Shown one piece after another: positions 8,076-59,973 of a stretch of DNA of 64,000 nucleotides. The notes below the pieces were generated by a model. The model had not been told where the DNA came from and made no database searches. It saw nothing but the letters and a program-made list of their open reading frames with translations. Where the stretch lies: the IMG/VR virus record IMGVR_UViG_2706795740_000001, positions 62,342-126,341 of that record; one strand, 5' to 3'. The translations under genes were made by a program, and so were the position numbers. The stretch's first letter is position 1. Each line of letters opens with the position of its first letter. Source of the stretch: a virus. Its lineage: Duplodnaviria > Caudoviricetes.

Positions 8076-8190
8076 TAAGTCAATCCCCTTTCCGTCTACA
8101 GTTTAATTCCTTACACTATCTATGGTCGGAGCATGGTGAACTAGAGTTGCGTGAGCAAAATAAAGACCCCTATCACAAGGGGCCATTCGA

Positions 8191-31271: not shown

Positions 31272-31646
31272 TTACTTAAAAGAGCCTGCCTTACGTCCCA
31301 CCTGAAGGCCGTTGCTTGCTAAGATGTGAAGCAATTGTGCTGTTGTTACCGTTCCACCGAACTTGCCTTCGATCTCACGTGTGAGAATTGTCTGTGCCCG
31401 TACAGGCCTTGGCGCTATTGTTTCAGGCTCATGCACAAGAACATAGTTATAGACTCCGTCCCCCAAGTTCTCAAGGGCAACTTTATAGCCTTGCATGTAC
31501 AATTCTTGAAGACGCGCTTGCCAACGAAGACTAATTTCTTGAAGCTCTACGTTGGTGATTCCTTTCTCGCCCGCCTGACGCAATGCAGTCAGAACACGTT
31601 GGCGTTGGGATGGAACAGGTTTCAAAGTATTATTGTAAGTGGCCAT
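31272..31646 (-). CDS. Winged-helix DNA-binding protein
   Basis: QRQRVLTAL..AG.KGIT..EL...ARLQEL...GY. Confidence 0.65.
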   Translation of the reverse strand: MATYNNTLKPVPSQRQRVLTALRQAGEKGITNVELQEISLRWQARLQELYMQGYKVALENLGDGVYNYVLVHEPETIAPRPVRAQTILTREIEGKFGGTVTTAQLLHILASNGLQVGRKAGSFK

Positions 31647-31811
31647 TTACCATCTCTCCCATATCTCATTTGCCTTACACTATCTATGGTGGAGTTATCT
31701 ATTAAAATAGTTGCGAAAAATAAAAAGCTAGGTAATCCCTAGCCTTAAATCACTGAAAATAGTTTGCTAAATTACTTTGGGATACTGACTCTCCCCGTTG
31801 TTTCCTCATGC

Positions 31812-31994
31812 TTATCCAAAATACATTTGATATTGTTTGTCACATCCGTCACACTCGATAATGTATGTCTTACCGAAATTATCTACATCTAATTCCTGTT
31901 GCTCCTGTCCGCAGTAAGGACATTTCACATTCGTATACATCGCATACAAGCTAGCTACTTCTGTATCTTCATAAGTACGGAATATTATTCCCAT
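31812..31994 (-). CDS. Small Zn-ribbon protein (cassette)
   Basis: CPYC/CDGC. Confidence 0.6.
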   Translation of the reverse strand: MGIIFRTYEDTEVASLYAMYTNVKCPYCGQEQQELDVDNFGKTYIIECDGCDKQYQMYFG

Positions 31995-32033
31995 CCCGTC
32001 TCCTCCCTTATCACAAGTAATGTTAAGTTAAAT

Positions 32034-32228
32034 TCACCATGTTCTGAACTCGATCATCTGACCGCACTTGCAATCAATATTTACTTCAATACTTGAGCAT
32101 CCCGTCCAACTGTCATCATGGCGTGTATATATTTCAATTGGATAATCTCGTTTGTAATCGGTGGTGATTGTTATTTCACTACCGCATGCTTGACATATCA
32201 CCTTGAAACCAATTTTCTGTTCTTGCAT
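32034..32228 (-). CDS. Small Zn-ribbon protein (cassette)
   Basis: CQAC/CKC. Confidence 0.6.
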   Translation of the reverse strand: MQEQKIGFKVICQACGSEITITTDYKRDYPIEIYTRHDDSWTGCSSIEVNIDCKCGQMIEFRTW

Positions 32229-32258
32229 TTCATCACCCCATTTACAAATCGTGTGTTG

Positions 32259-32615
32259 TTAAATTAGCTTTTCATCAAGTAACCCCAATTTATAAGCAAC
32301 CTGTGCAGTTTCATGATCTACAAGTTTGCCATTAACCGTATTTGCATAAGGAGAAACTTTCTTGCTTTTAGGATCGTACCACCCTGTCTCAATCTCCTTT
32401 TCAGAGAAAGGGTGTCCCTCCTTCCAGATCGCTTTATCCTTCTCAAAGTCGTAGGCATACCATTTCTTTATCTCCGGCCCTATCTCACTTGCATGGCAAT
32501 TTTCACAATGGAATGGTCCACATTGAACCAGACCTACGCCAACATCCACCCAATCAGCTTCACACTCAGTTCCACAATAAGGGCACTTTTCTGTCCGTGT
32601 ATCATAAGCTCCCAT
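32259..32615 (-). CDS. Zn-ribbon protein (cassette)
   Basis: CPYC..ADWVDVGVG.VQCGPFHCENC; ATG 32615 after GGAGG. Confidence 0.7.
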   Translation of the reverse strand: MGAYDTRTEKCPYCGTECEADWVDVGVGLVQCGPFHCENCHASEIGPEIKKWYAYDFEKDKAIWKEGHPFSEKEIETGWYDPKSKKVSPYANTVNGKLVDHETAQVAYKLGLLDEKLI

Positions 32616-32651
32616 TTTAAATTCCTCCCTTATCACAAGTGATTGTTTTGC

Positions 32652-32852
32652 CTACACATCCTCCTGCTCAGAGTGCTTCCCTTTGTTCCAAAGTTCAAGA
32701 TAGAATTCAGCATCGTCCAAAGTGCATTCAATATCACTGATCAGTTCTTGCAATTCGACAATCTTTGCCTTTCCTTTCTGGATAAGCTCCTCTAAGCAAG
32801 GTTTACATTTCAAATCAGTGAAAGGTCTGCCTCCGCAAGTGCATGTATTCAT
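32652..32852 (-). CDS. Small Cys-rich coiled-coil protein
   Basis: CTCGG...CKPC; ATG 32852 after GGGAGG. Confidence 0.5.
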   Translation of the reverse strand: MNTCTCGGRPFTDLKCKPCLEELIQKGKAKIVELQELISDIECTLDDAEFYLELWNKGKHSEQEDV

Positions 32853-32886
32853 ATCTAACCCCCCCCTCCCTTTCAGCAATGGTTTG

Positions 32887-33093
32887 TTAAATATAAACTT
32901 CCCTTGGCGCACTTCCACGGTACGGAGAAACTAATCCCTCTTTCTCCATGCGATCTACAATTCTTGCCGCATAGACGTAGCCAACTCTAATTTTTCTTTG
33001 CAACATGGTAACTGAGCATTACTTCGTTTCCTTCACGATCTGTACTGCCTCTTGATAACGCTCTTCAAAATCTGAATACAAATTACTACCCAT
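32887..33093 (-). pseudogene. Stand-alone FtsK gamma domain with in-frame stop
   Basis: MGSNLYSDFEERYQEAVQIVKETK*CSVTMLQRKIRVGYVYAARIVDRMEKEGLVSPYRGSAPREVYI; TAA at 33019-33021. Confidence 0.8.
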
Positions 33094-33128
33094 GTCAGAT
33101 TCCTCCATTTACAAAGCATGTATTGTGT

Positions 33129-33581
33129 TCAATGAATTACTTCCCAAGAGCCAACATTAAATTTCTCTTGAGCTTCCTCTTGACTTATAGCCCTTTGTGA
33201 TCCGTCAGCATAAACAACAAGGATTTTACCTGTTGGATAACCGTCAAAGTCTTTGTCAAATGAAACCAGCATTTTTCCAACGTCACGACTTTTTACAAAT
33301 TCGCAACCGTCGATATCCTCAATTCGAAAGTTATTTAATCCCGCAAAAATAAGTTTTCCATTGCTATAACTATCTGCATATCCTTCACTAAATGCTAAGG
33401 CGAGTATGCAAAATGTCTCTTTATCTCCGTATCTATAGATAACGTCATCGGGAACTCCAACTTCATTGAGCTTTCTAAGGTTTTTCTTACTACTAGCAAC
33501 AAGGATGTACGCATCGTCTCCGCCGTTCGTATCTACTGCCTTTAAGCTATTTAATACATCCAAAACTGCTTGTCTATTCAT
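33129..33581 (-). CDS. Hypothetical protein (cassette)
   Basis: 150-aa ORF with GGAG RBS. Confidence 0.6.
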   Translation of the reverse strand: MNRQAVLDVLNSLKAVDTNGGDDAYILVASSKKNLRKLNEVGVPDDVIYRYGDKETFCILALAFSEGYADSYSNGKLIFAGLNNFRIEDIDGCEFVKSRDVGKMLVSFDKDFDGYPTGKILVVYADGSQRAISQEEAQEKFNVGSWEVIH

Positions 33582-33584
33582 TAT

Positions 33585-33923
33585 TCATCTCTCCTTCTCT
33601 CTGCCCTTAATCACCTTTATAGCAACTATACATATGGCTTCTTGTGCAGTCTTTGCAAAGACTTCAATCTTCCGACCAATCGGCCTATCATCAAAGACAG
33701 CCAAATACTTCATATCTTCTGGTAGATTTCCAGCTTGAGGTATCAATGCAATACATAGCTTATCCATCACTTGAAAAGCATCAGCTATATTACGAAGTGG
33801 ATTCCAACCACTTCTAAACTCGTCAGGTGAATGCCAGCCCCACAAATCCAATTCAACATGATATATCCATCTCCACCCCATCACCGCAGTTGCCAGTGTT
33901 TTAATGATCTGTTGTTCGGTCAT
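33585..33923 (-). CDS. BC1872-like phage ABA-sandwich protein
   Basis: LA..VMGW...WNPL.NIADAF.V..KL...A.TA.EAIC..A. Confidence 0.7.
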   Translation of the reverse strand: MTEQQIIKTLATAVMGWRWIYHVELDLWGWHSPDEFRSGWNPLRNIADAFQVMDKLCIALIPQAGNLPEDMKYLAVFDDRPIGRKIEVFAKTAQEAICIVAIKVIKGREKER

Positions 33924-33964
33924 AATATCCTCCCATTTTACAAAGCGTGTGCCGTGTTAATAAT

Positions 33965-34224
33965 TAGAAACCGCCATGTACTATGACCTCTCCTGTGAGT
34001 TTGTTTATTTCTACATACACATAGTTTTCAGACAAAGTTTGCACTGTTTCATACGTAATTTCTTCATTACAATGAGGGCATTTTTTCAAACGGAAATCTG
34101 TAACTTCTCATCCAACCCATTTCTTTTTCTCGATTTGTTCATCAAACTCATAAAAAACGCCATTGCACAGCCTGCATTGCATCTCTTTAGCTGATAAAGA
34201 AAGAGTTCCTCCTATGTCTTTCAT
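33965..34224 (-). pseudogene. Decayed Zn-ribbon cassette gene
   Basis: ATG after GGGGA RBS, then frameshift; frame QCRLC...VG*EVTDF...CPHC contains a TGA. Confidence 0.5.
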
Positions 34225-34264
34225 TGTTTATCCCCCAGTTGTTCGGTCATTGTGCTTCCTCTCC

Positions 34265-34660
34265 TCACAGCAACGATATTGAAATCATAGGTTCGAGGCA
34301 GATTCCTTTTGCTTTACGATAGTATCGCTGTCCATCAGCCACAATAGACGTTGGTTTTGCATTGCCGTATAAATTTGAATAAGAATCAACTTGACTCTTC
34401 GGGATTAACTCCCATACCTTAATGTCATCCATGCAACCATCAAGGTCGTCGCATTCCCAATGGCCCCAATCGTAAAACTTTTTTTGTAACCAGTCGGTCA
34501 ATTCTGTATCAGAAAGGAAAATGTATGCTTCTTCCGCGTTGTCTTCACGGTAAACATAAAAGTATTCGTCAAGCAGACTACTTTGTTTTTCGATTACAGC
34601 TTTTAATGCACGCCAATTTGATACTGAGCTTCCAACTAAATCTATCTGGTATTTACTCAT
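34265..34660 (-). CDS. Hypothetical protein
   Basis: GGAGG RBS downstream of promoter 34722. Confidence 0.65.
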   Translation of the reverse strand: MSKYQIDLVGSSVSNWRALKAVIEKQSSLLDEYFYVYREDNAEEAYIFLSDTELTDWLQKKFYDWGHWECDDLDGCMDDIKVWELIPKSQVDSYSNLYGNAKPTSIVADGQRYYRKAKGICLEPMISISLL

Positions 34661-34767
34661 AATTGCCTCCTATTTTTGTCCTAAATGATCTGTTATTTGT
34701 TCGAATTTGCTTTACACTATCTATGGTCGATGTATGGTGTAAAAAAGTGGCAAAAGAAAAAGAAGCC

Positions 34768-37700
34768 TTAAGCGGCCTCTTCTCCTTCTTCCTCATCTGC
34801 ATCAGCCTCAATAAACGTGCCGATTTTGTACTCAATACCAAACTTAGATAGCTTTTTCTTTACTTCTTCCTCAAAGACTTCTCTCCAATCAAGAGTACCA
34901 TCGTTCATCATGCGGATTTGCTCAGTAGAGAAGTTCCCGCCCCAATACGGGCTTACTTCTATGTCACTTTTAAAGCGAACGCCAACATCATTCGGGATAA
35001 CGTTTGCCATTGTTTCTGTGATGGCCTTCAGGGCGGCAGGGTCAACATCAGCAGGAGCGTCAAAAATTAACTCATCGTGTACCTGCAACACAAGATGAAT
35101 GTCATCCTTCTCAAGCTGTGATACATATCCCTCACGCAACCACTCCTCACGGTCAAAACAAAGAGTGCCATCAGGCCGTCGTGGGTAGAACAACGCCACC
35201 ATTGCCGCCTTAGATTGGTCTGCCGAACTTCCCTGAATCTTGGCGTTACCTCCTTGGCGTTTGCATTTCTCGATCTTCCAGTGCCATCCAGACTTCTTCC
35301 AAGAGTCTTCTTGTTTAGCTTCAGCGATAGTCTCGCCGAATCTACGCTTACGACCAAGAACAGTCTCGATGTAACCTTTCTCCATAACCTCTTTATGTGT
35401 TTGTGCTTCCCACAACAGATAGTTAGGGAGGCCCGCCTTAAACCCATCAATAAGAGACTTGGCCTCTTCCTTGGAAGATTCAATTTGGTCAGCAAGACCG
35501 ATTTCAGTTATGCCGTATACAACACCGAATACCCATTCGGTTTCCCATGTTACCATGAGCGTGGACTATACCTTGATAATGCTATCTAGGAATATCTGCA
35601 ATCCCTAGAAAACTTATCCCTCCCGTTAAATAGGTTCGATTGATTTACGCACTCATTATAAGGAAACTAAATCCGTACAATAGCACTAAGTGCGTAGGCG
35701 ACCTATTATAAGTCTCTACACCGTCATCCCTAAGCTACTAGGGGTTTTGGCTCGGTATTGCCCAGTTGGGTTTCACCGATATGAGAGAGGTTTATAGTCG
35801 GCAGTATGGTGTTTACCGACTTGGTCTTCTTACGTAGCAACTCAAAGAAAGAAGCAAGGCGTTCGATGGTCGGGCGGGTAATGTCACTCAAGCAAGCATT
35901 TGCACCTTGTTCCTTACTGTTAAGGTAAGTAATAGCATAGGCCAATTCTTGCGAACTAGAATATTTAACAATTGCTTCATTAACATTAGCCGCCGTTTCT
36001 TCTTCAGACTCTCCCTTATACCCACGAATCATTTCGAACATGTCATAATCAAACCCATGAATCTGGCATGTCACTTTACTGTGCATGTCCAAACCGTGCT
36101 CGAAAATATCAATGAGTGTTTGCTCACGGGTAAAGATCGCCAGCCAGCGAAGCTCCTGTTGCTTAATCTACATACTTTCGTAAGAGCCTGACTATACCTT
36201 CAAGGGGCAACTTCATAGCAACTAAGCCCCTGCTCACCGTATATACGTGTTCGATTGATTTTACCGCTTTGCGGTATTACGACACGTAATAAGTCGATAC
36301 ACTCCCTGCTATTGAGAGCACGGGATTGGCATATGAGTCACAAACACATCTTGCTTTCTGTCCATTGCTAGACAGTTGTCATAGTAGATATTCTCATAGA
36401 ACTTCTTTGCTAATCGGTTCGAATGGAATCCGACAACATAATTTCCTGCTCCGCGCTTATCGAACTTGATTTTTACATCATGTTCGAGCATATCACTAAG
36501 GATTTCAGCTAACCTTTTAGCGAATTTCTCCGCCCCTAAAGTGAACCTTACTGCCAGTTGTTTTGAATAGCACCCCACTGTCCCATCCCCATCAAAGTAT
36601 CCCCTTATGAAGTCTCTCAAGTACTCTTTAGGAATTTCAGGGAAGGTCATTGATCTGGACTTATTAGGTGTTACACCTAACGCAATCAGTCGGGCGGCTA
36701 CGTCACGGCGAGAAGCAGATATGCCGTAGGACTCTTTACCGTACTTCTTATCTGTGCGTGTAAAGATGTAGCTTCTATCCATACCTAACGTGTCAGCTAA
36801 CTTTTCAATGTGGTCAAGGTCTTTTATCTGAATACGGAAACGGTTATTCGACAGATTACCGTCAGCGTAAATAAAACCTAATACATAAGCCATTTCAGGA
36901 GACCACTCATTAAAGAAGTTCTCGTTGAACGGGATACCGATTTTCATAGCCTGTGCTGTCCCTGAATCTCTACGTTCAATTTCAAACTCTTTCATCTTAC
37001 CCATCACATAACATTGAGAACGACTTATGAGTTTTGCAATCTCCTTAGTGGACTTTTGCTCCACATTGTACAGTCTATCTAGTTCTTCTATGGTTAGTTC
37101 ATGTCCTTTGCTCCGAAGAGGGATGCCAAACGATATTACTTTCCTCCTAACCCAAGAGTGCTCCCACCCTGTTTCTTGGGCGATCTCTTTGAAGTTAAGT
37201 GCTCTATTAACATACAGTTCGGTAAGAAGTTCTTTAGTAAGTTCTACTTTCATGGCTTCAACACTCCTTAAAATGATTGTACTACCATTATAAGGATGCT
37301 GTAAACCATTCTAACTCTTGATGTGTAAGTAACGCACTTAGCGTTCCCCGTTTTGAGTGAGTTTAGATTAACGACTTCAGCCAACAATTAGGCTATTTGG
37401 CGTAAACTGAAGTCGGCAGATACTAGTAGACGCCCTGCCGCCGCACGGAACGCATAGCGGATAAGGTCAAATTTCGATGGAATCTGCTGTAGATTTGGAT
37501 TTGAGCAACTAACGCGTCCAGTCCTAACAAGCTGATTGTAGGCACAATGTATGATACCATCCACGGTATCTTGTGGTAATTTATTGCAGAATGCGTCAAT
37601 AAGCTTAGACAGTCCACGGTATTCAAGAATCAACTCAATTACCTTGTGCTTCTTCTTATTGCGTGTGAGAACTTTCTTGCTTGTGGACTTCTTGGGCACT

Positions 37701-38866
37701 TTCTTTTTAAGTGTCATGTCATAGGTCATTTCAGGCTCAAGAATCTTGTGCTCGACATAAAGCTTCTGGGCCAACTGCGCAGGAGCACCTAAATTCAGTT
37801 CCTCAACGACTTCATATTCTTCCTTAAACTTAATGCCTTCCCGTTGACGCAGGCGCGTACGGGTCAAGGTAATAGTTTCACCTAATACGTCGAAAATTTC
37901 TTTCTTAAGGTCTTTAAGCTTCTCAGAAAGAACTTTACCTATAACATTAGTGAGGAACTTAGAGTCAAGCTCTACCCCACGGCGTTCTGCCACAGCGAAC
38001 ACTGCAAGTAGAGGCATTTCCACTTCCCTGAATAGCTTGTACACCCCACCCAAGCCGTACGTAGGATTCTCCACTATCTGCTTTTGATATTGGAAAACCC
38101 AGCGGGTCATAAAAACATCGTGACATGCGTAATAGTTAGCCAAGCGATGGGGTATACTGTCAAATGGGGTCTTATCGAACATGCTTCCAAACTTAAATGT
38201 GGGTCGGTTTAACTCATCAGGTGACATTTTTCTTTGGTCAATGAGCCAAGGTAATGCGTAGGTGTTGTACCACTCCTTAAGGCCCTTCGGCTTGTTTTCG
38301 TTCAATAAACCACCCATTACCATAGTGTCCCAATGAATATTGAACGTAATGTCAATGTCAGCCCAATTTTTCAACACATGAATGTCGAACTTAGCATTCG
38401 CCATTACAATGAGCTTGTCAGCTTCAAGGAGCGGGCGAAGCCTATCAGCAACTACATCGAAAGGAAGCGTAGGAACATCCTTAGACATTTCATGTAGAAA
38501 AGGCTTCATTGGAATATTGAAATACTGCTCGCTCATAAAACCTATAGAAATTGAAATTAACCCGTCTTTCCAGTTGTTCAGGCCATATGTCTCAGTATCT
38601 AGGAATACATAAGCATCTCCTTGATACATAGTCTTGTATGCCTTGTAATAATTAACTAAGCGCTCAAGGAGTTCAGGCGTATTAATAAGTACATAGTTGT
38701 CAGGCATAACAATTGAAGCCTCTACATCTAAGATTTGTTGCTCTTTTTTTGTGAGTTTTTTAGGTTTCTTAGGCTTCTCCGTATTCTTAGTCCGAGTTCT
38801 ACCCTTGGCCGCCTTTTGTTCATTTTTTTCTAGTATGTCAATAATTTCATTGCCTGTATCGGACAC
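34768..38866 (-). CDS. polA: Family A DNA polymerase, three exons (37406-38866, 35815-36161, 34768-35533), 857 aa when spliced
   Basis: Exo I FLDTETYG, TGRVSCSNPNLQQIP; splicing restores motif A ADFS|QQELR and motif B RKKTKSV|VFGVVYG; motif C QVHDEL. Confidence 0.92.
35534..35814 (-). ncRNA. Group I intron 2 (281 nt, no ORF) in polA motif B
   Basis: Exon AGUCGGU pairs IGS GCCGACU with U.G; P10 AUACU with GGUAU; AGAGACU and AAGGUAUAGUC P7 elements; terminal G at 35534. Confidence 0.88.
36162..37405 (-). ncRNA. Group I intron 1 (1244 nt) in polA motif A, carrying a homing endonuclease
   Basis: Exon GACUUCAGU pairs IGS GCUGAAGUC with U.G; P10 UUGUUG with CAACAG; AAGGUAUAGUC element; terminal G at 36162. 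Confidence 0.9.
36309..37253 (-). CDS. Intron-encoded LAGLIDADG homing endonuclease with N-terminal HTH repeats
   Basis: YVLGFIYADG and FIRGYFDGDG motifs; AGGAG RBS. Confidence 0.9.
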   Translation of the reverse strand: MKVELTKELLTELYVNRALNFKEIAQETGWEHSWVRRKVISFGIPLRSKGHELTIEELDRLYNVEQKSTKEIAKLISRSQCYVMGKMKEFEIERRDSGTAQAMKIGIPFNENFFNEWSPEMAYVLGFIYADGNLSNNRFRIQIKDLDHIEKLADTLGMDRSYIFTRTDKKYGKESYGISASRRDVAARLIALGVTPNKSRSMTFPEIPKEYLRDFIRGYFDGDGTVGCYSKQLAVRFTLGAEKFAKRLAEILSDMLEHDVKIKFDKRGAGNYVVGFHSNRLAKKFYENIYYDNCLAMDRKQDVFVTHMPIPCSQ

Positions 38867-57338: not shown

Positions 57339-58453
57339 TACTTACCTTCTCCTTTTCCCAATTCAAATGTACTTGACTAAACAAATTATATAACATGATT
57401 TGGAGTATTGTCAATACCCCGATAAACTAGAATCGACTTATGTTGATATCCGTCATTGCATGCTGACCGTACCGACTGGAGACCAGCAGTAAAAATCGCC
57501 CGGTTTTTTAGAGTCGCCGCCTAATATAGTATTTTCATCTTTATCTATCTCCGGGCCATTCTAGCAATGTCGGGCTTATAACTAATCAGCATATCTGATA
57601 GACTCCTTAGTTAATACCCCTGCCGAGCCACAATTAATAATCAGAGAATTTTTCCTGTGGGCAAGCACTTTCTAACCTAGCGCCATTCCATTTGTCAATA
57701 GTTTATCAAAAAAAATTATTTTTGTCAAATTACCTATTGACAAATAGTTTTGATCACGTTCTAAATTTATTGTCAATATGTTTTTATATTTTCATTTTAT
57801 AATCAATAGGCAACGCCCTTCGAATACACGTTCCCACAAACCTATTCCACGAAAACCCATTCCATACTATTCTTATTTAGATAATCGGATTTCATATATA
57901 AAACTTATTTCAGTTTGTCAAGCGATCATAACATTTCAGTTTTGTCAAAGATCATATAATTTAATTTTGTCAATAAGGATCAATTAAATTTTATTTGTCA
58001 ATAGGGGTTAACTGGTGATTTTAAATTGAGAATCATTATCAAGCATCGCCACACAGGCAAGGAAGCCTCTAAAATCGTTTGTAATTTTTACCCATAACAT
58101 CATACAGGGTATAGCAAGAAATCGTTATACAAGGAGAAAAAATACTCATACTATTTAGAATCTCAAAAACCTTGTCATTACTACACTATTCCGCCCATAC
58201 ATATACAGGGTATATGTATGGTGTGTCCTTTTCTTATAATTGTGTCCAATCTGTTAATGAAAATCGTTTTTAAGGTTTCATTTTTGCATTATATAGAAGG
58301 AACACATTTTTCTACTCCCTGCAAAACGAATACCTTCTATTATAGCGAAAATATGCAATGAAATTTTTCAACTTTTTTTAAATACCCCCTTTACAGGGTA
58401 TTACAATACGTGTATAGTAGTAATCAAATAAAAGAATGACAACAGAGGCACGC

Positions 58454-58510
58454 TAGAAGGCACATATGGTGCGGCGTTCCCCTCCTGTTAGAAGGCACAT
58501 ATGGTGCGGC
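58454..58510 (+). repeat. 22-bp tandem direct repeat TAGAAGGCACATATGGTGCGGC x2
   Basis: Two exact copies 35 bp apart in the leader of the 58573 gene. Confidence 0.85.
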
Positions 58511-58572
58511 AGGGTAAAACAATAATGAAAAGATTAATCCATACAGATTAAACAAAAGGAAGGTAAGTCATT

Positions 58573-59973
58573 ATGAATAAATTGAGTTTAGAGTCTGATG
58601 CTTTCCTCCGTTCTTCTGCTGTTGCTAGTGGTTTCCTAAACGCCAATATTCACTTGAGAGAAGTGTCAGCATATTATCTGTACAATGAACGTTTTGTCGG
58701 TTTTAACGATTTGGGATTGAATGAGAAAGGTTACACTAGTTTTATCCCTTCTGTTAAATTGAACGTAGAAGACGCTTGGCAGAGGATTGTACACAGTAGT
58801 GAATACGATACATATTTTGCCAAGGTGGTTAAATTTGATAATTTTGAAGAACGTCATGCATGGGGTCAGTTATTTTGGATGGTACGCGGCTTGTGTCATA
58901 AGGACATTATTGCCCGCAATGTTACGCCGGAAATTATCAATCACATTCGTAACAAGAAAAAAGAGTTTGAGAGTTTCAGAAAATGCCCTTCATCCCCTAA
59001 ACTAGCCAAGCTTATCGGTTTCTTGTTTGGCGAAAAAGCAGGCGGAGCAATGGACTGGCTTACAACAAAATGTCCACGGGAAGACAAAGCAGGCAAGTTA
59101 GATGAATATCGAATTTTTATAAGTGTATTGCCGCACAACGTGGCAGGAATGTCGTACTACTCTTCTAAAAATCATGGCGGCTCTTCTTGGCAAGGTCACA
59201 ATGGCACAAGCTGTCAAGACCCGTCACGAACACATAGACATGACTTAATCAATCACCTGCCCGCCTCTTTGTCAGAAAATACTTTAGCTATTGCTTGGTT
59301 GGCTAAACGTGAAAATAATGATATTTGGCATCCGGTGTATGAAGCTAGGGCAAATATTCGTTTAATACCTTGCAAAAACAAAAACTTGTTCTTGATTTGC
59401 TCGGCTTATTTCACTAACCCAACCGCAAGTTCAATACTGATTGAAGGGTTGAAAAATCAATATCCTGAAATGATGATTTACGCTCCTGATGTACAGGTTT
59501 ACGGTGTTGATGTCATGGACATTGAGGTAACTATAGATTCCGTAGAATATGAGGGGCAGAACGTTTGTGAGTGCTATGCGTGTAGCGGTACAGGAGAAGT
59601 GGAAATTGACTGCCCTTCATGCAATGGGCTTGGCGATGAATGTCGAGAGTGTGAAGAATGTGGAGGTTACGGTAGCGTGTGCAGTGAAGACGGCGAAGAG
59701 AAAGACACCTGCTCCTATTGTCATGGAGAAGGCGAATTTAATACAGAATGCGGAGACTGTGGAGGCAATAGGTACTTTCAAGTGGAATGCTCTTCATGCG
59801 ATGGGACGGGATACCAAACCGAATTTGATGACATCTATCTACCCTACATTGATGACACCCATGTAATTCTTTGTGAAAGTGAAATGATAATATATACCCT
59901 CCCCATAGATTTGTTGATTGAAATGGGAGCTATAGACGTGGAATGCGAAGAACTAGAGGAATATGAAGCATAG
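58573..59973 (+). CDS. Protein with C-terminal DnaJ-type CxxCxGxG zinc-finger repeats
   Basis: Six CxxCxG repeats; AGGAAGG RBS. Confidence 0.75.
   Translation: MNKLSLESDAFLRSSAVASGFLNANIHLREVSAYYLYNERFVGFNDLGLNEKGYTSFIPSVKLNVEDAWQRIVHSSEYDTYFAKVVKFDNFEERHAWGQLFWMVRGLCHKDIIARNVTPEIINHIRNKKKEFESFRKCPSSPKLAKLIGFLFGEKAGGAMDWLTTKCPREDKAGKLDEYRIFISVLPHNVAGMSYYSSKNHGGSSWQGHNGTSCQDPSRTHRHDLINHLPASLSENTLAIAWLAKRENNDIWHPVYEARANIRLIPCKNKNLFLICSAYFTNPTASSILIEGLKNQYPEMMIYAPDVQVYGVDVMDIEVTIDSVEYEGQNVCECYACSGTGEVEIDCPSCNGLGDECRECEECGGYGSVCSEDGEEKDTCSYCHGEGEFNTECGDCGGNRYFQVECSSCDGTGYQTEFDDIYLPYIDDTHVILCESEMIIYTLPIDLLIEMGAIDVECEELEEYEA

Follow-up and report, generated by a model that had tools for sequence, protein, structure and literature searches.

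Among the repeats described at phage gene boundaries, the start-associated sequences (SAS) of Cluster K mycobacteriophages and the early-promoter stem-loop (PeSL) cassettes of T4-type phages are, by analogy, the functional counterparts closest to the element considered here, a family of short linkers between the small genes of an array in the Brevibacillus laterosporus phage Jenst, which is itself a member of neither. SAS are asymmetric, contain the core of a Shine-Dalgarno sequence and are placed a few bases ahead of start codons (Pope et al., 2011, PMC3203893). All point the same way and are limited to the non-structural half of the genome, where they precede genes of many families; some of them take in the stop codon of the gene before. 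Extended SAS have imperfect inverted repeats added upstream. The function of SAS, which is unknown, is thought to be translational (PMC3203893). PeSLs consist of an early promoter and a terminator stem-loop (Arbiol et al., 2010, PMC2839356; PMC4122927). Recombination between their copies inserts, deletes and replaces genes and can yield mini-circles (PMC2839356; PMC4122927). The stretch of DNA that we analysed (the window, 64,000 nucleotides) comprises bases 62,342-126,341 of the 126,341-bp record IMGVR_UViG_2706795740_000001, which has direct terminal repeats, and represents the right half of Jenst. This phage is a siphovirus and a near-twin of SecTim467 (Berg et al., 2016, PMC4909266). Almost all genes of the window lie on the minus strand. 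An original prediction, made from the letters of the window alone, had taken five gene junctions of the array for Xer/dif-like sites in an integron-like system for the capture of promoterless cassettes. We do find cassette-like swapping of genes at this motif, but neither the Xer or integron mechanism nor membership of that family holds. With a probability of about 0.6, the linkers are portable units for starting translation that double as short stretches of homology at which recombination reshuffles genes.

Like SAS, the linkers are asymmetric, place a Shine-Dalgarno sequence 3-8 nt before the starts of unrelated genes, and keep to one orientation and to a non-structural region. They depart from the SAS consensus GGGATAGGAGCCC in carrying TTGTAAAT or TTGTGATAA followed by GGGAGG, and the host phylum differs. 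Unlike SAS, they also fill the whole gap between stop and start, come in two subtypes, occupy one short array and are common to unrelated phage groups. Like PeSLs, they are short, conserved regulatory repeats, all facing the same way, that separate small and non-essential genes in a hyperplastic region, and the small ORFan genes that flank them vary in the 13 arrays compared. Unlike PeSLs, they are internal to one operon and hold neither a sigma-70-type promoter nor a terminator stem-loop; structurally, PeSLs correspond more closely to a 57-nt promoter repeat that stands around the whole array in Jenst. A third comparison is with the modular theory of Susskind and Botstein, in which conserved 'linker' sequences at the boundaries of lambdoid modules, as in the nin region, are said to have been proposed as sites of modular exchange. 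The Jenst linkers are likewise short boundary sequences in a mosaic region of small genes between replication genes and a late-gene activator, for which a guiding role in homologous exchange is proposed. What sets them apart is that one array uses the same recognisable family, about 35 nt long, many times over.

A linker family shared by unrelated gene pairs

The common layout that had been predicted for five junctions (W1-W5, Table 1) is there, and all five read as described on the minus strand. The plan is an upstream stop codon, an A/C/U-rich spacer that ends in one of the two sequences named above, GGGAGG, 5-8 nt and ATG, and the linker makes up the entire intergenic gap, with a modal distance of 33-36 nt from stop to start. 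The stop codon is usually the TAA of TTTAACAAA, and otherwise a TAG or TGA directly before (A)CAAA. Two subtypes can be told apart by their cores, CACACGATTTGTAAATGGGGAGG in subtype 1 and CCATTACTTGTGATAAGGGAGG in subtype 2 (spacer cores CACACGATTTGTAAAT and CCATTACTTGTGATAA in the alignment). Judged by this alignment they are clearly homologous to each other; hybrids between them exist (locus L036), and the region of TTGT and ACAA contains the best-conserved positions of both. Several copies of subtype 2 hold a near-palindrome, AT(C/T)ACTTGTGAT.

Five matches to the loose pattern TTGTRAWA(0-3)GGRG were counted in the window against 0.32 expected, a number that none of 100 shuffled sequences reached. 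Independently of this pattern, a repeat finder returned two families of three copies each, one of subtype 1 (32238-32259, 33105-33126 and 33934-33955) and one of subtype 2 (32002-32025, 32624-32647 and a degenerate copy at 32865-32888). The leader of the degenerate linker W6 also precedes a homologue of gene D in prophage L030. Next, 22 distinct junctions from 13 arrays were made into an nhmmer profile, which was applied with a threshold of E<0.01. It matched only W1-W5 in the whole 126-kb Jenst genome, only two junctions in the complete genome of the temperate myovirus Davies, and 33 sites in the 13 arrays altogether.

Homologues of the array genes are found in Jimmer/Abouo-type phages and in 22 related prophage contigs, where they form a mosaic run of small genes between replication, dUTPase and methylase genes on one side and a sigma-24-like late regulator on the other. 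In lambdoid phages the nin region has the corresponding position. For six of the nine Jenst array genes there are homologues in this mosaic run, in a different order. The original prediction had proposed scanning relatives with a profile of the motif; the scan found the motif confined to the variable array, with different genes on either side and permuted gene order (families 22 and 46, and family 17 relative to families 18 and 3). In the 12 arrays from prophages and phages, the sigma gene follows each of the 28 matches at a distance of 0.5-3 kb.

In the sequences compared, the linkers are shared by many unrelated gene pairs: in the 13 arrays they flank at least 12 upstream and at least 14 downstream protein families in 18 distinct pairs. 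W4 and the linker that precedes Davies gp87 agree at 22 of 22 nt, although the genes to either side are unrelated; about 1e-6 such matches would be expected by chance. The exact 17-nt core of subtype 2 occurs in 13 distinct contexts in IMG/VR. There an upstream gene ending in ...IVQAI is followed, after this core, by three different downstream genes, another ending in ...EQMDV by four (Jenst included), and a downstream gene starting with MKSRQRKK is preceded by three different sequences. Such cassette-like behaviour is what the original prediction called for, and judged by its own terms of refutation it stands at this point. Short stop-to-start junctions outside the linker family (for example TGAGCAAACGGAGGGAGAGC, TTAACAAAATAGTTAGGGAGGAAGCACA and GGGACAAAAATAGGAGG, in loci L025-L036) are likewise common to different gene pairs, and the reuse of standard linkers seems to be a general habit of Jimmer/Abouo-type early regions. 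In the published comparison of Brevibacillus phages, Osiris and Powder yielded no significant motif, and the linkers are not described (PMC4909266).

Homology switches inside the linkers

Alignment of the arrays with one another places switches of homology inside the linkers, at scattered points. Depending on the pair of arrays, homology ends after TAACAAA, after CACAC or CACGAT, after TTTGNAAA, or after GGGAGGA; where both partners carry the same subtype, the crossover is not placeable within the shared stretch. One further switch, the insertion of gene H relative to Davies, falls inside the first 13 nt of the coding start MTEQQ, and this insertion is bounded by the coding-start repeat and not by two linkers. 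Even so, homology switches in at least three zones, at the left end of the linker, in its middle and at the ribosome-binding site, and a single cleavage core does not allow this.

Comparison with Xer and integron systems

The original prediction would make the linkers Xer/dif- or attC-like sites at which a tyrosine recombinase, either the Xer-like protein of Jenst or host XerC/XerD, moves cassettes as circles. In some respects the array recalls an integron: promoterless genes in one orientation behind a single, common promoter, boundary repeats that all stand in direct orientation, and gene content and order that vary and change at the linkers. As in Xer/dif, in integrative mobile elements exploiting Xer (IMEX) and in pdif modules, the right arm is rich in A/T and reminiscent of the XerD half-site TTATGTAAA; in subtype 1 it agrees at 7 of 11 positions with the XerD arm of a candidate host dif. 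A weak ACAA...TTGT symmetry is present, and the tyrosine recombinase that was expected elsewhere in the phage was found. It is an XerC/D-like protein of 292 aa (G000 58150-58644; locus L007 1447-2325), encoded just outside the window, and the sole PF00589 protein in Jenst.

The candidate host dif came from a loose search pattern, the Bacillus subtilis dif sequence having given no match with up to three mismatches in two Brevibacillus genomes. Its sequence, GAGTCCGATAA-TATATA-TTATGTAAACA, lies inside 38 nt conserved between these genomes and is a credible Brevibacillus dif. At their best register the linkers agree with it at 10-12 of 22 arm positions. Since 1.4% of all Jenst 28-mers have at least 11 of 22 matches and about 60 registers were tried per linker, this similarity is at chance level. 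The imperfect inverted arms seen originally are present, if weakly, but the distance between the left element TTTAAC and TTGT varies between 10 and 12 nt. The linkers show neither an 11-6-11 site with XerC/XerD-like arms nor a fixed arm spacing with crossover in a 6-8-bp central region.

Sites that do resemble dif stand elsewhere in Jenst. Two of them lie in tandem between genes on the minus strand, about 30 kb from the linkers and unrelated to them in sequence: GAGTCCGATAA-TAAAGA-TTATGTAAACT at 1901-1928 of the window, with 21 of 22 arm positions, and AATGTACATAA-TATTAA-TTATGTAAACA at 1851-1878, with a perfect XerD arm. The recombinase gene is about 5.6 kb from these sites and about 36 kb from the array. 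In five Jenst-like relatives no dif-like sites were found. This Xer module hints that the phage integrates at dif, or that it resolves dimers of a prophage of the plasmid-like kind.

Integron attC sites are 57-141 nt long, with paired R and L boxes, a hairpin fold and a GTTRRRY core at the cassette boundary. The linkers, 33-36 nt long (under two-thirds of even the shortest attC) and unfolded, are not hairpin sites of this type; their alignment contains no GTTRRRY core, no attI was seen, and no IntI-type integrase lies beside the array. The cut-off of the integron-integrase model TIGR02249 is 265 bits, and the Jenst recombinase reaches 133.8. The complete genomes of Jimmer2 and Osiris have linkers and contain no PF00589 recombinase, and unrelated linker sequences in the same arrays behave alike. 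Together with the scattered switch points and the boundaries of the gene H insertion, these observations make a site-specific cassette system of the Xer or integron kind very improbable; on the sequence evidence, the linkers are not recombination sites of either. There is also a negative lesson here, namely that a dif-like look of A/T-rich junctions is not evidence for Xer; the real Xer module of the phage is elsewhere.

A probable portable unit for translation and recombination

We infer the translational role of the linkers and the pathway by which they recombine. A linker would end the upstream gene with a stop codon, add an A/C/U-rich spacer free of structure and give the downstream gene a strong Shine-Dalgarno sequence, so that any incoming small open reading frame could be translated independently from the polycistronic message. 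The strong, extended Shine-Dalgarno sequence fits a portable translation unit, and so does the absence of structure: the five linkers fold with minimum free energies of -1.7 to -4.3 kcal/mol (z-scores of -0.7 to +1.2 against shuffled sequences), and none has a stable fold beyond the shuffled controls. Because the same 20-35 nt recur in direct orientation, also in co-resident prophages, they may at the same time offer short homology, or microhomology at GGGAGG. General recombination, by phage or host recombinases or by joining at Shine-Dalgarno microhomology, could then swap, insert, delete and reorder genes, and a dedicated site-specific recombinase would be unnecessary. Both phage groups have recombination genes, Jenst one for a RecA-like protein and the Jimmer-type phages one annotated as RecU.

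Several points weigh against the linkers being such portable units and preferred crossovers. Cores of 20-25 nt are almost as short as RecA-type recombination allows. For the 15 nt that precede the linker Shine-Dalgarno sequence, selection is unproven: in the only two orthologous pairs, linker divergence is 0.106, compared with 0.158 at third and 0.050 at first and second codon positions, and is the same as that of ordinary junctions. The weak ACAA-N8-TTGT symmetry is left unaccounted for. Nor are the linkers demonstrably hotter than other gene boundaries. A two-by-two comparison of motif and adjacency found nearly every gene adjacency in these arrays to be variable, and counts of alignment end points were used in its place; these are about equal at 1.67 per motif junction and 1.38 per ordinary junction. 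Gene content does change at the motif, as the original prediction demanded, but breakpoints are no denser there than at ordinary junctions.

These figures would suit a more passive history, in which the linkers are left from an ancient tandem duplication or a few recent block transfers and function only as carriers of the ribosome-binding site, and in which breakpoints appear at junctions because recombinants with a cut gene are selected against. Per nucleotide, gene junctions hold about 5 times as many alignment end points as the interior of genes does, whether or not the motif is present, and the identity of 22 of 22 nt with Davies is compatible with about 90% DNA identity (0.9^22 ~0.1). The same core, however, stands between at least 18 gene pairs with unrelated coding sequences, for which duplication and divergence are insufficient without conservation of the linker or repeated recombination in it; in addition, the two subtypes persist side by side and form hybrids. 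We consider such a history unlikely.

A regulatory site beside the ribosome-binding site is a real alternative, although an unlikely one. The 15-20 nt upstream of the Shine-Dalgarno sequence would be the operator of a phage protein that sets how strongly the accessory genes are expressed, and gene shuffling a by-product. The protein could be an RNA-level translational repressor, for which T4 RegA is the model, or a DNA roadblock, for which the stoperators of Cluster A mycobacteriophages are. The motif abuts the ribosome-binding site in every copy, in constant orientation to transcription; both the region conserved best across the subtypes and the near-palindrome of subtype 2 would suit a bound protein, and SAS, with their unknown function, are a precedent (PMC3203893). 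This alternative remains because the test for selection on the spacer is underpowered, with two pairs. On the other hand, the left half-site shifts by 1-2 nt between copies, the motif is absent from the immunity and operator regions of Davies save for one loose ACAA-N8-TTGT match, and a scan of the whole Davies and Jenst genomes for operator-like linker copies gave nothing convincing. No candidate binding protein co-occurs with the linkers, and those of Jenst sit in a foreign genome which, as far as tested, shares no regulator with Jimmer-type phages. It would be a considerable surprise if the linkers were instead recognition sites of a dedicated system, neither Xer nor integron, that mobilises or regulates cassettes; a phage protein might, for example, bind ACAA...TTGT beside the ribosome-binding site and promote the excision and capture of single-gene cassettes. 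If true, this would amount to an integron-like capture platform in Gram-positive phages, common to temperate myoviruses and a 126-kb siphovirus.

If portable initiation units and preferred crossovers were proven, they would explain how small accessory genes, which are probably genes for host takeover or anti-defence, can be traded and expressed immediately in a new phage, and the linkers would be usable as standard intercistronic parts for Bacillales. It is an old question whether phage mosaicism arises through short conserved boundaries or through random illegitimate joining followed by selection. The array offers a compact test case, with a 35-nt family in at least 18 gene pairs, visible hybrids and transfer between unrelated phage lineages of one host.

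Origin of the Jenst array

By sequence comparison, the Jenst array is of foreign origin. Its slot follows the DNA polymerase gene and precedes a conserved gene at 31272-31646. Jenst-like relatives were retrieved by means of the polymerase C-terminus; their polymerase genes have DNA identities of 67-74% to that of Jenst, and the conserved gene can also be aligned in three of them (68-71%). In the closest relatives the slot holds a single unrelated gene of 145-152 aa, and linkers are absent from it. The content of the slot is thus wholly different, which indicates that the slot is hypervariable and its content in Jenst foreign to the lineage. GC content is lower in the array (0.38-0.41) than in the flanks (0.43-0.49). 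Among sequenced phages, the array DNA matches only the temperate myoviruses Davies, Abouo, Jimmer, Osiris and Powder, and identities of 89-94% to Davies or Jimmer are reached in two genes, gene I (89%) and the first 146 nt of gene G (94%).

The linker family would have its home in temperate Jimmer/Abouo-type Brevibacillus phages and prophages, in the accessory arrays that come just before their late sigma-factor gene. About 3 kb of these cassettes would have passed to Jenst, a 126-kb siphovirus that infects the same host but is unrelated, and Jenst would express them from one of its own promoter cassettes. The array was probably acquired from such prophages while Jenst was growing in lysogens, into a slot bracketed by promoter repeats. 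The two copies of the 57-nt promoter repeat (31668-31724 and 34705-34761, identified with the repeat finder) are direct, 77% identical and bracket the whole 3-kb array; they could account for its entry into the slot, or its exit.

Three Jenst-like records, those behind loci L008, L011 and L015, are classed as provirus in IMG/VR. This class suggests that the phage group can be temperate. Jenst had not been considered temperate (PMC4909266). The DNA polymerase I gene upstream of the slot (34768-38866) is split, its reading frame being broken by an open reading frame of 314 aa (36309-37253) and by a second, non-coding gap.

The array as a transcription unit

The array reads as one transcription unit, from a phage promoter through nine genes (in the order I, H, G, F, E, D, C, B, A) to a terminator (Table 1).

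Table 1. Features of the Jenst array and its borders, in window coordinates and in the order of transcription.
Feature	Position	Strand	Remarks
Terminator-like hairpin	34752..34789	-	Ends the DNA polymerase gene, just upstream of the array
Phage promoter cassette	34705..34761	-	Copy of the 57-nt direct repeat; motif CCATAGATAGTGTAAAG at 34710-34726
Gene I	34265..34660	-	131 aa, unknown function, phrog_6475; DNA 89% identical to Davies gp84
MTEQ stub	34238..34250	-	Ribosome-binding site and ATGACCGAACAAC; exact 13-nt repeat of the gene G start (33911-33923)
Gene H	33964..34224	-	Zinc-ribbon protein, pseudogene, TGA at codon 39
Linker W1	33929..33964	-	Subtype 1 (TTAACACGGCACACGCTTTGTAAAATGGGAGG); gene H stop to gene G ribosome-binding site
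Gene G	33585..33923	-	112 aa, Phage_ABA_S domain
Gene F	33129..33581	-	150 aa, unknown function; starts 3 nt past the gene G stop, without linker
Linker W2	33102..33129	-	Subtype 1 (TGAACACAATACATGCTTTGTAAATGGAGG)
Gene E	32887..33093	-	Stand-alone FtsK-gamma domain, pseudogene, TAA at codon 25
Linker W6	32853..32886	-	Degenerate subtype 2 (TTTAACAAACCATTGCTGAAAGGGAGG); nhmmer only E=3.4; not part of the original prediction
Gene D	32652..32852	-	66 aa, Cys-rich; homologues in prophage arrays L026, L030 and L033
Linker W3	32624..32658	-	Subtype 2 (TAGGCAAAACAATCACTTGTGATAAGGGAGG)
Gene C	32259..32615	-	118 aa, zinc-ribbon-like; homologue in L030
Linker W4	32235..32265	-	Subtype 1
Gene B	32034..32228	-	64 aa, Cys-rich
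Linker W5	32002..32035	-	Subtype 2 (TTAACTTAACATTACTTGTGATAAGGGAGG)
Gene A	31812..31994	-	60 aa, zinc ribbon; homologous to Jimmer2 gp90 and Abouo gp82
Terminator-like hairpin	31724..31746	-	Closes the array
Second promoter cassette copy	31668..31724	-	Motif at 31673-31689; serves the next conserved gene (31272-31646)

Both the single phage promoter ahead of the array and the lack of promoters belonging to its genes had been predicted and were recovered: within the array the coding strand carries no sigma-70-like promoter, and neither promoters nor terminators were matched inside the linkers. A -10-like reading of TGTGATAAG was rejected, as transcription would then begin downstream of the ribosome-binding site, and so was a promoter of the extracytoplasmic function (ECF) sigma type, the AAC and CG elements of the linkers being merely 8-10 nt apart. 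Rfam gave no match in the array. A promoter-like motif, CCATARAWAGTGTAAGG, often with CGA before it, stands upstream of genes in about a dozen copies on the minus strand; 13 matches were counted against 1.45 expected, for example at 8109, 16166, 20608, 30406, 31673 and 34710. It is the promoter-like motif reported earlier for Jenst and SecTim467, and the motif family of the array promoter has been described for these two phages as well (PMC4909266).

The nine products are all small and often Cys-rich, with no function assigned; zinc ribbons, a Phage_ABA_S domain and an FtsK-gamma domain are what can be recognised. The two pseudogenes that were originally noticed are genes H and E, each otherwise intact and broken by exactly one in-frame nonsense codon. 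In gene H, which encodes a protein of 86 aa, TGA replaces the codon for Trp39 of an intact prophage homologue that is 94% identical, and in gene E reading through the TAA gives a full-length FtsK-gamma domain. PHROGs lists the halves of both broken genes as separate tiny families. In gene G the first 146 nt correspond to Davies gp85 and Jimmer2 gp92, and the C-terminal half differs. The duplication of its start by the MTEQ stub, also pointed out originally, is exact, and a decayed copy of the MTEQQ gene start lies at 34684-34702 in the leader of gene I. The stub accompanies gene H in other prophages as well; in prophage L029 an identical one precedes an intact gene H homologue, so it is not a fresh target duplication. 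Elsewhere in the window, palindromes of the type AGGGTATTGTAAATACCCT overlap sigma-A-like early promoters at about 49861, 53284, 57003 and 60392, and look like operators of an immunity repressor.

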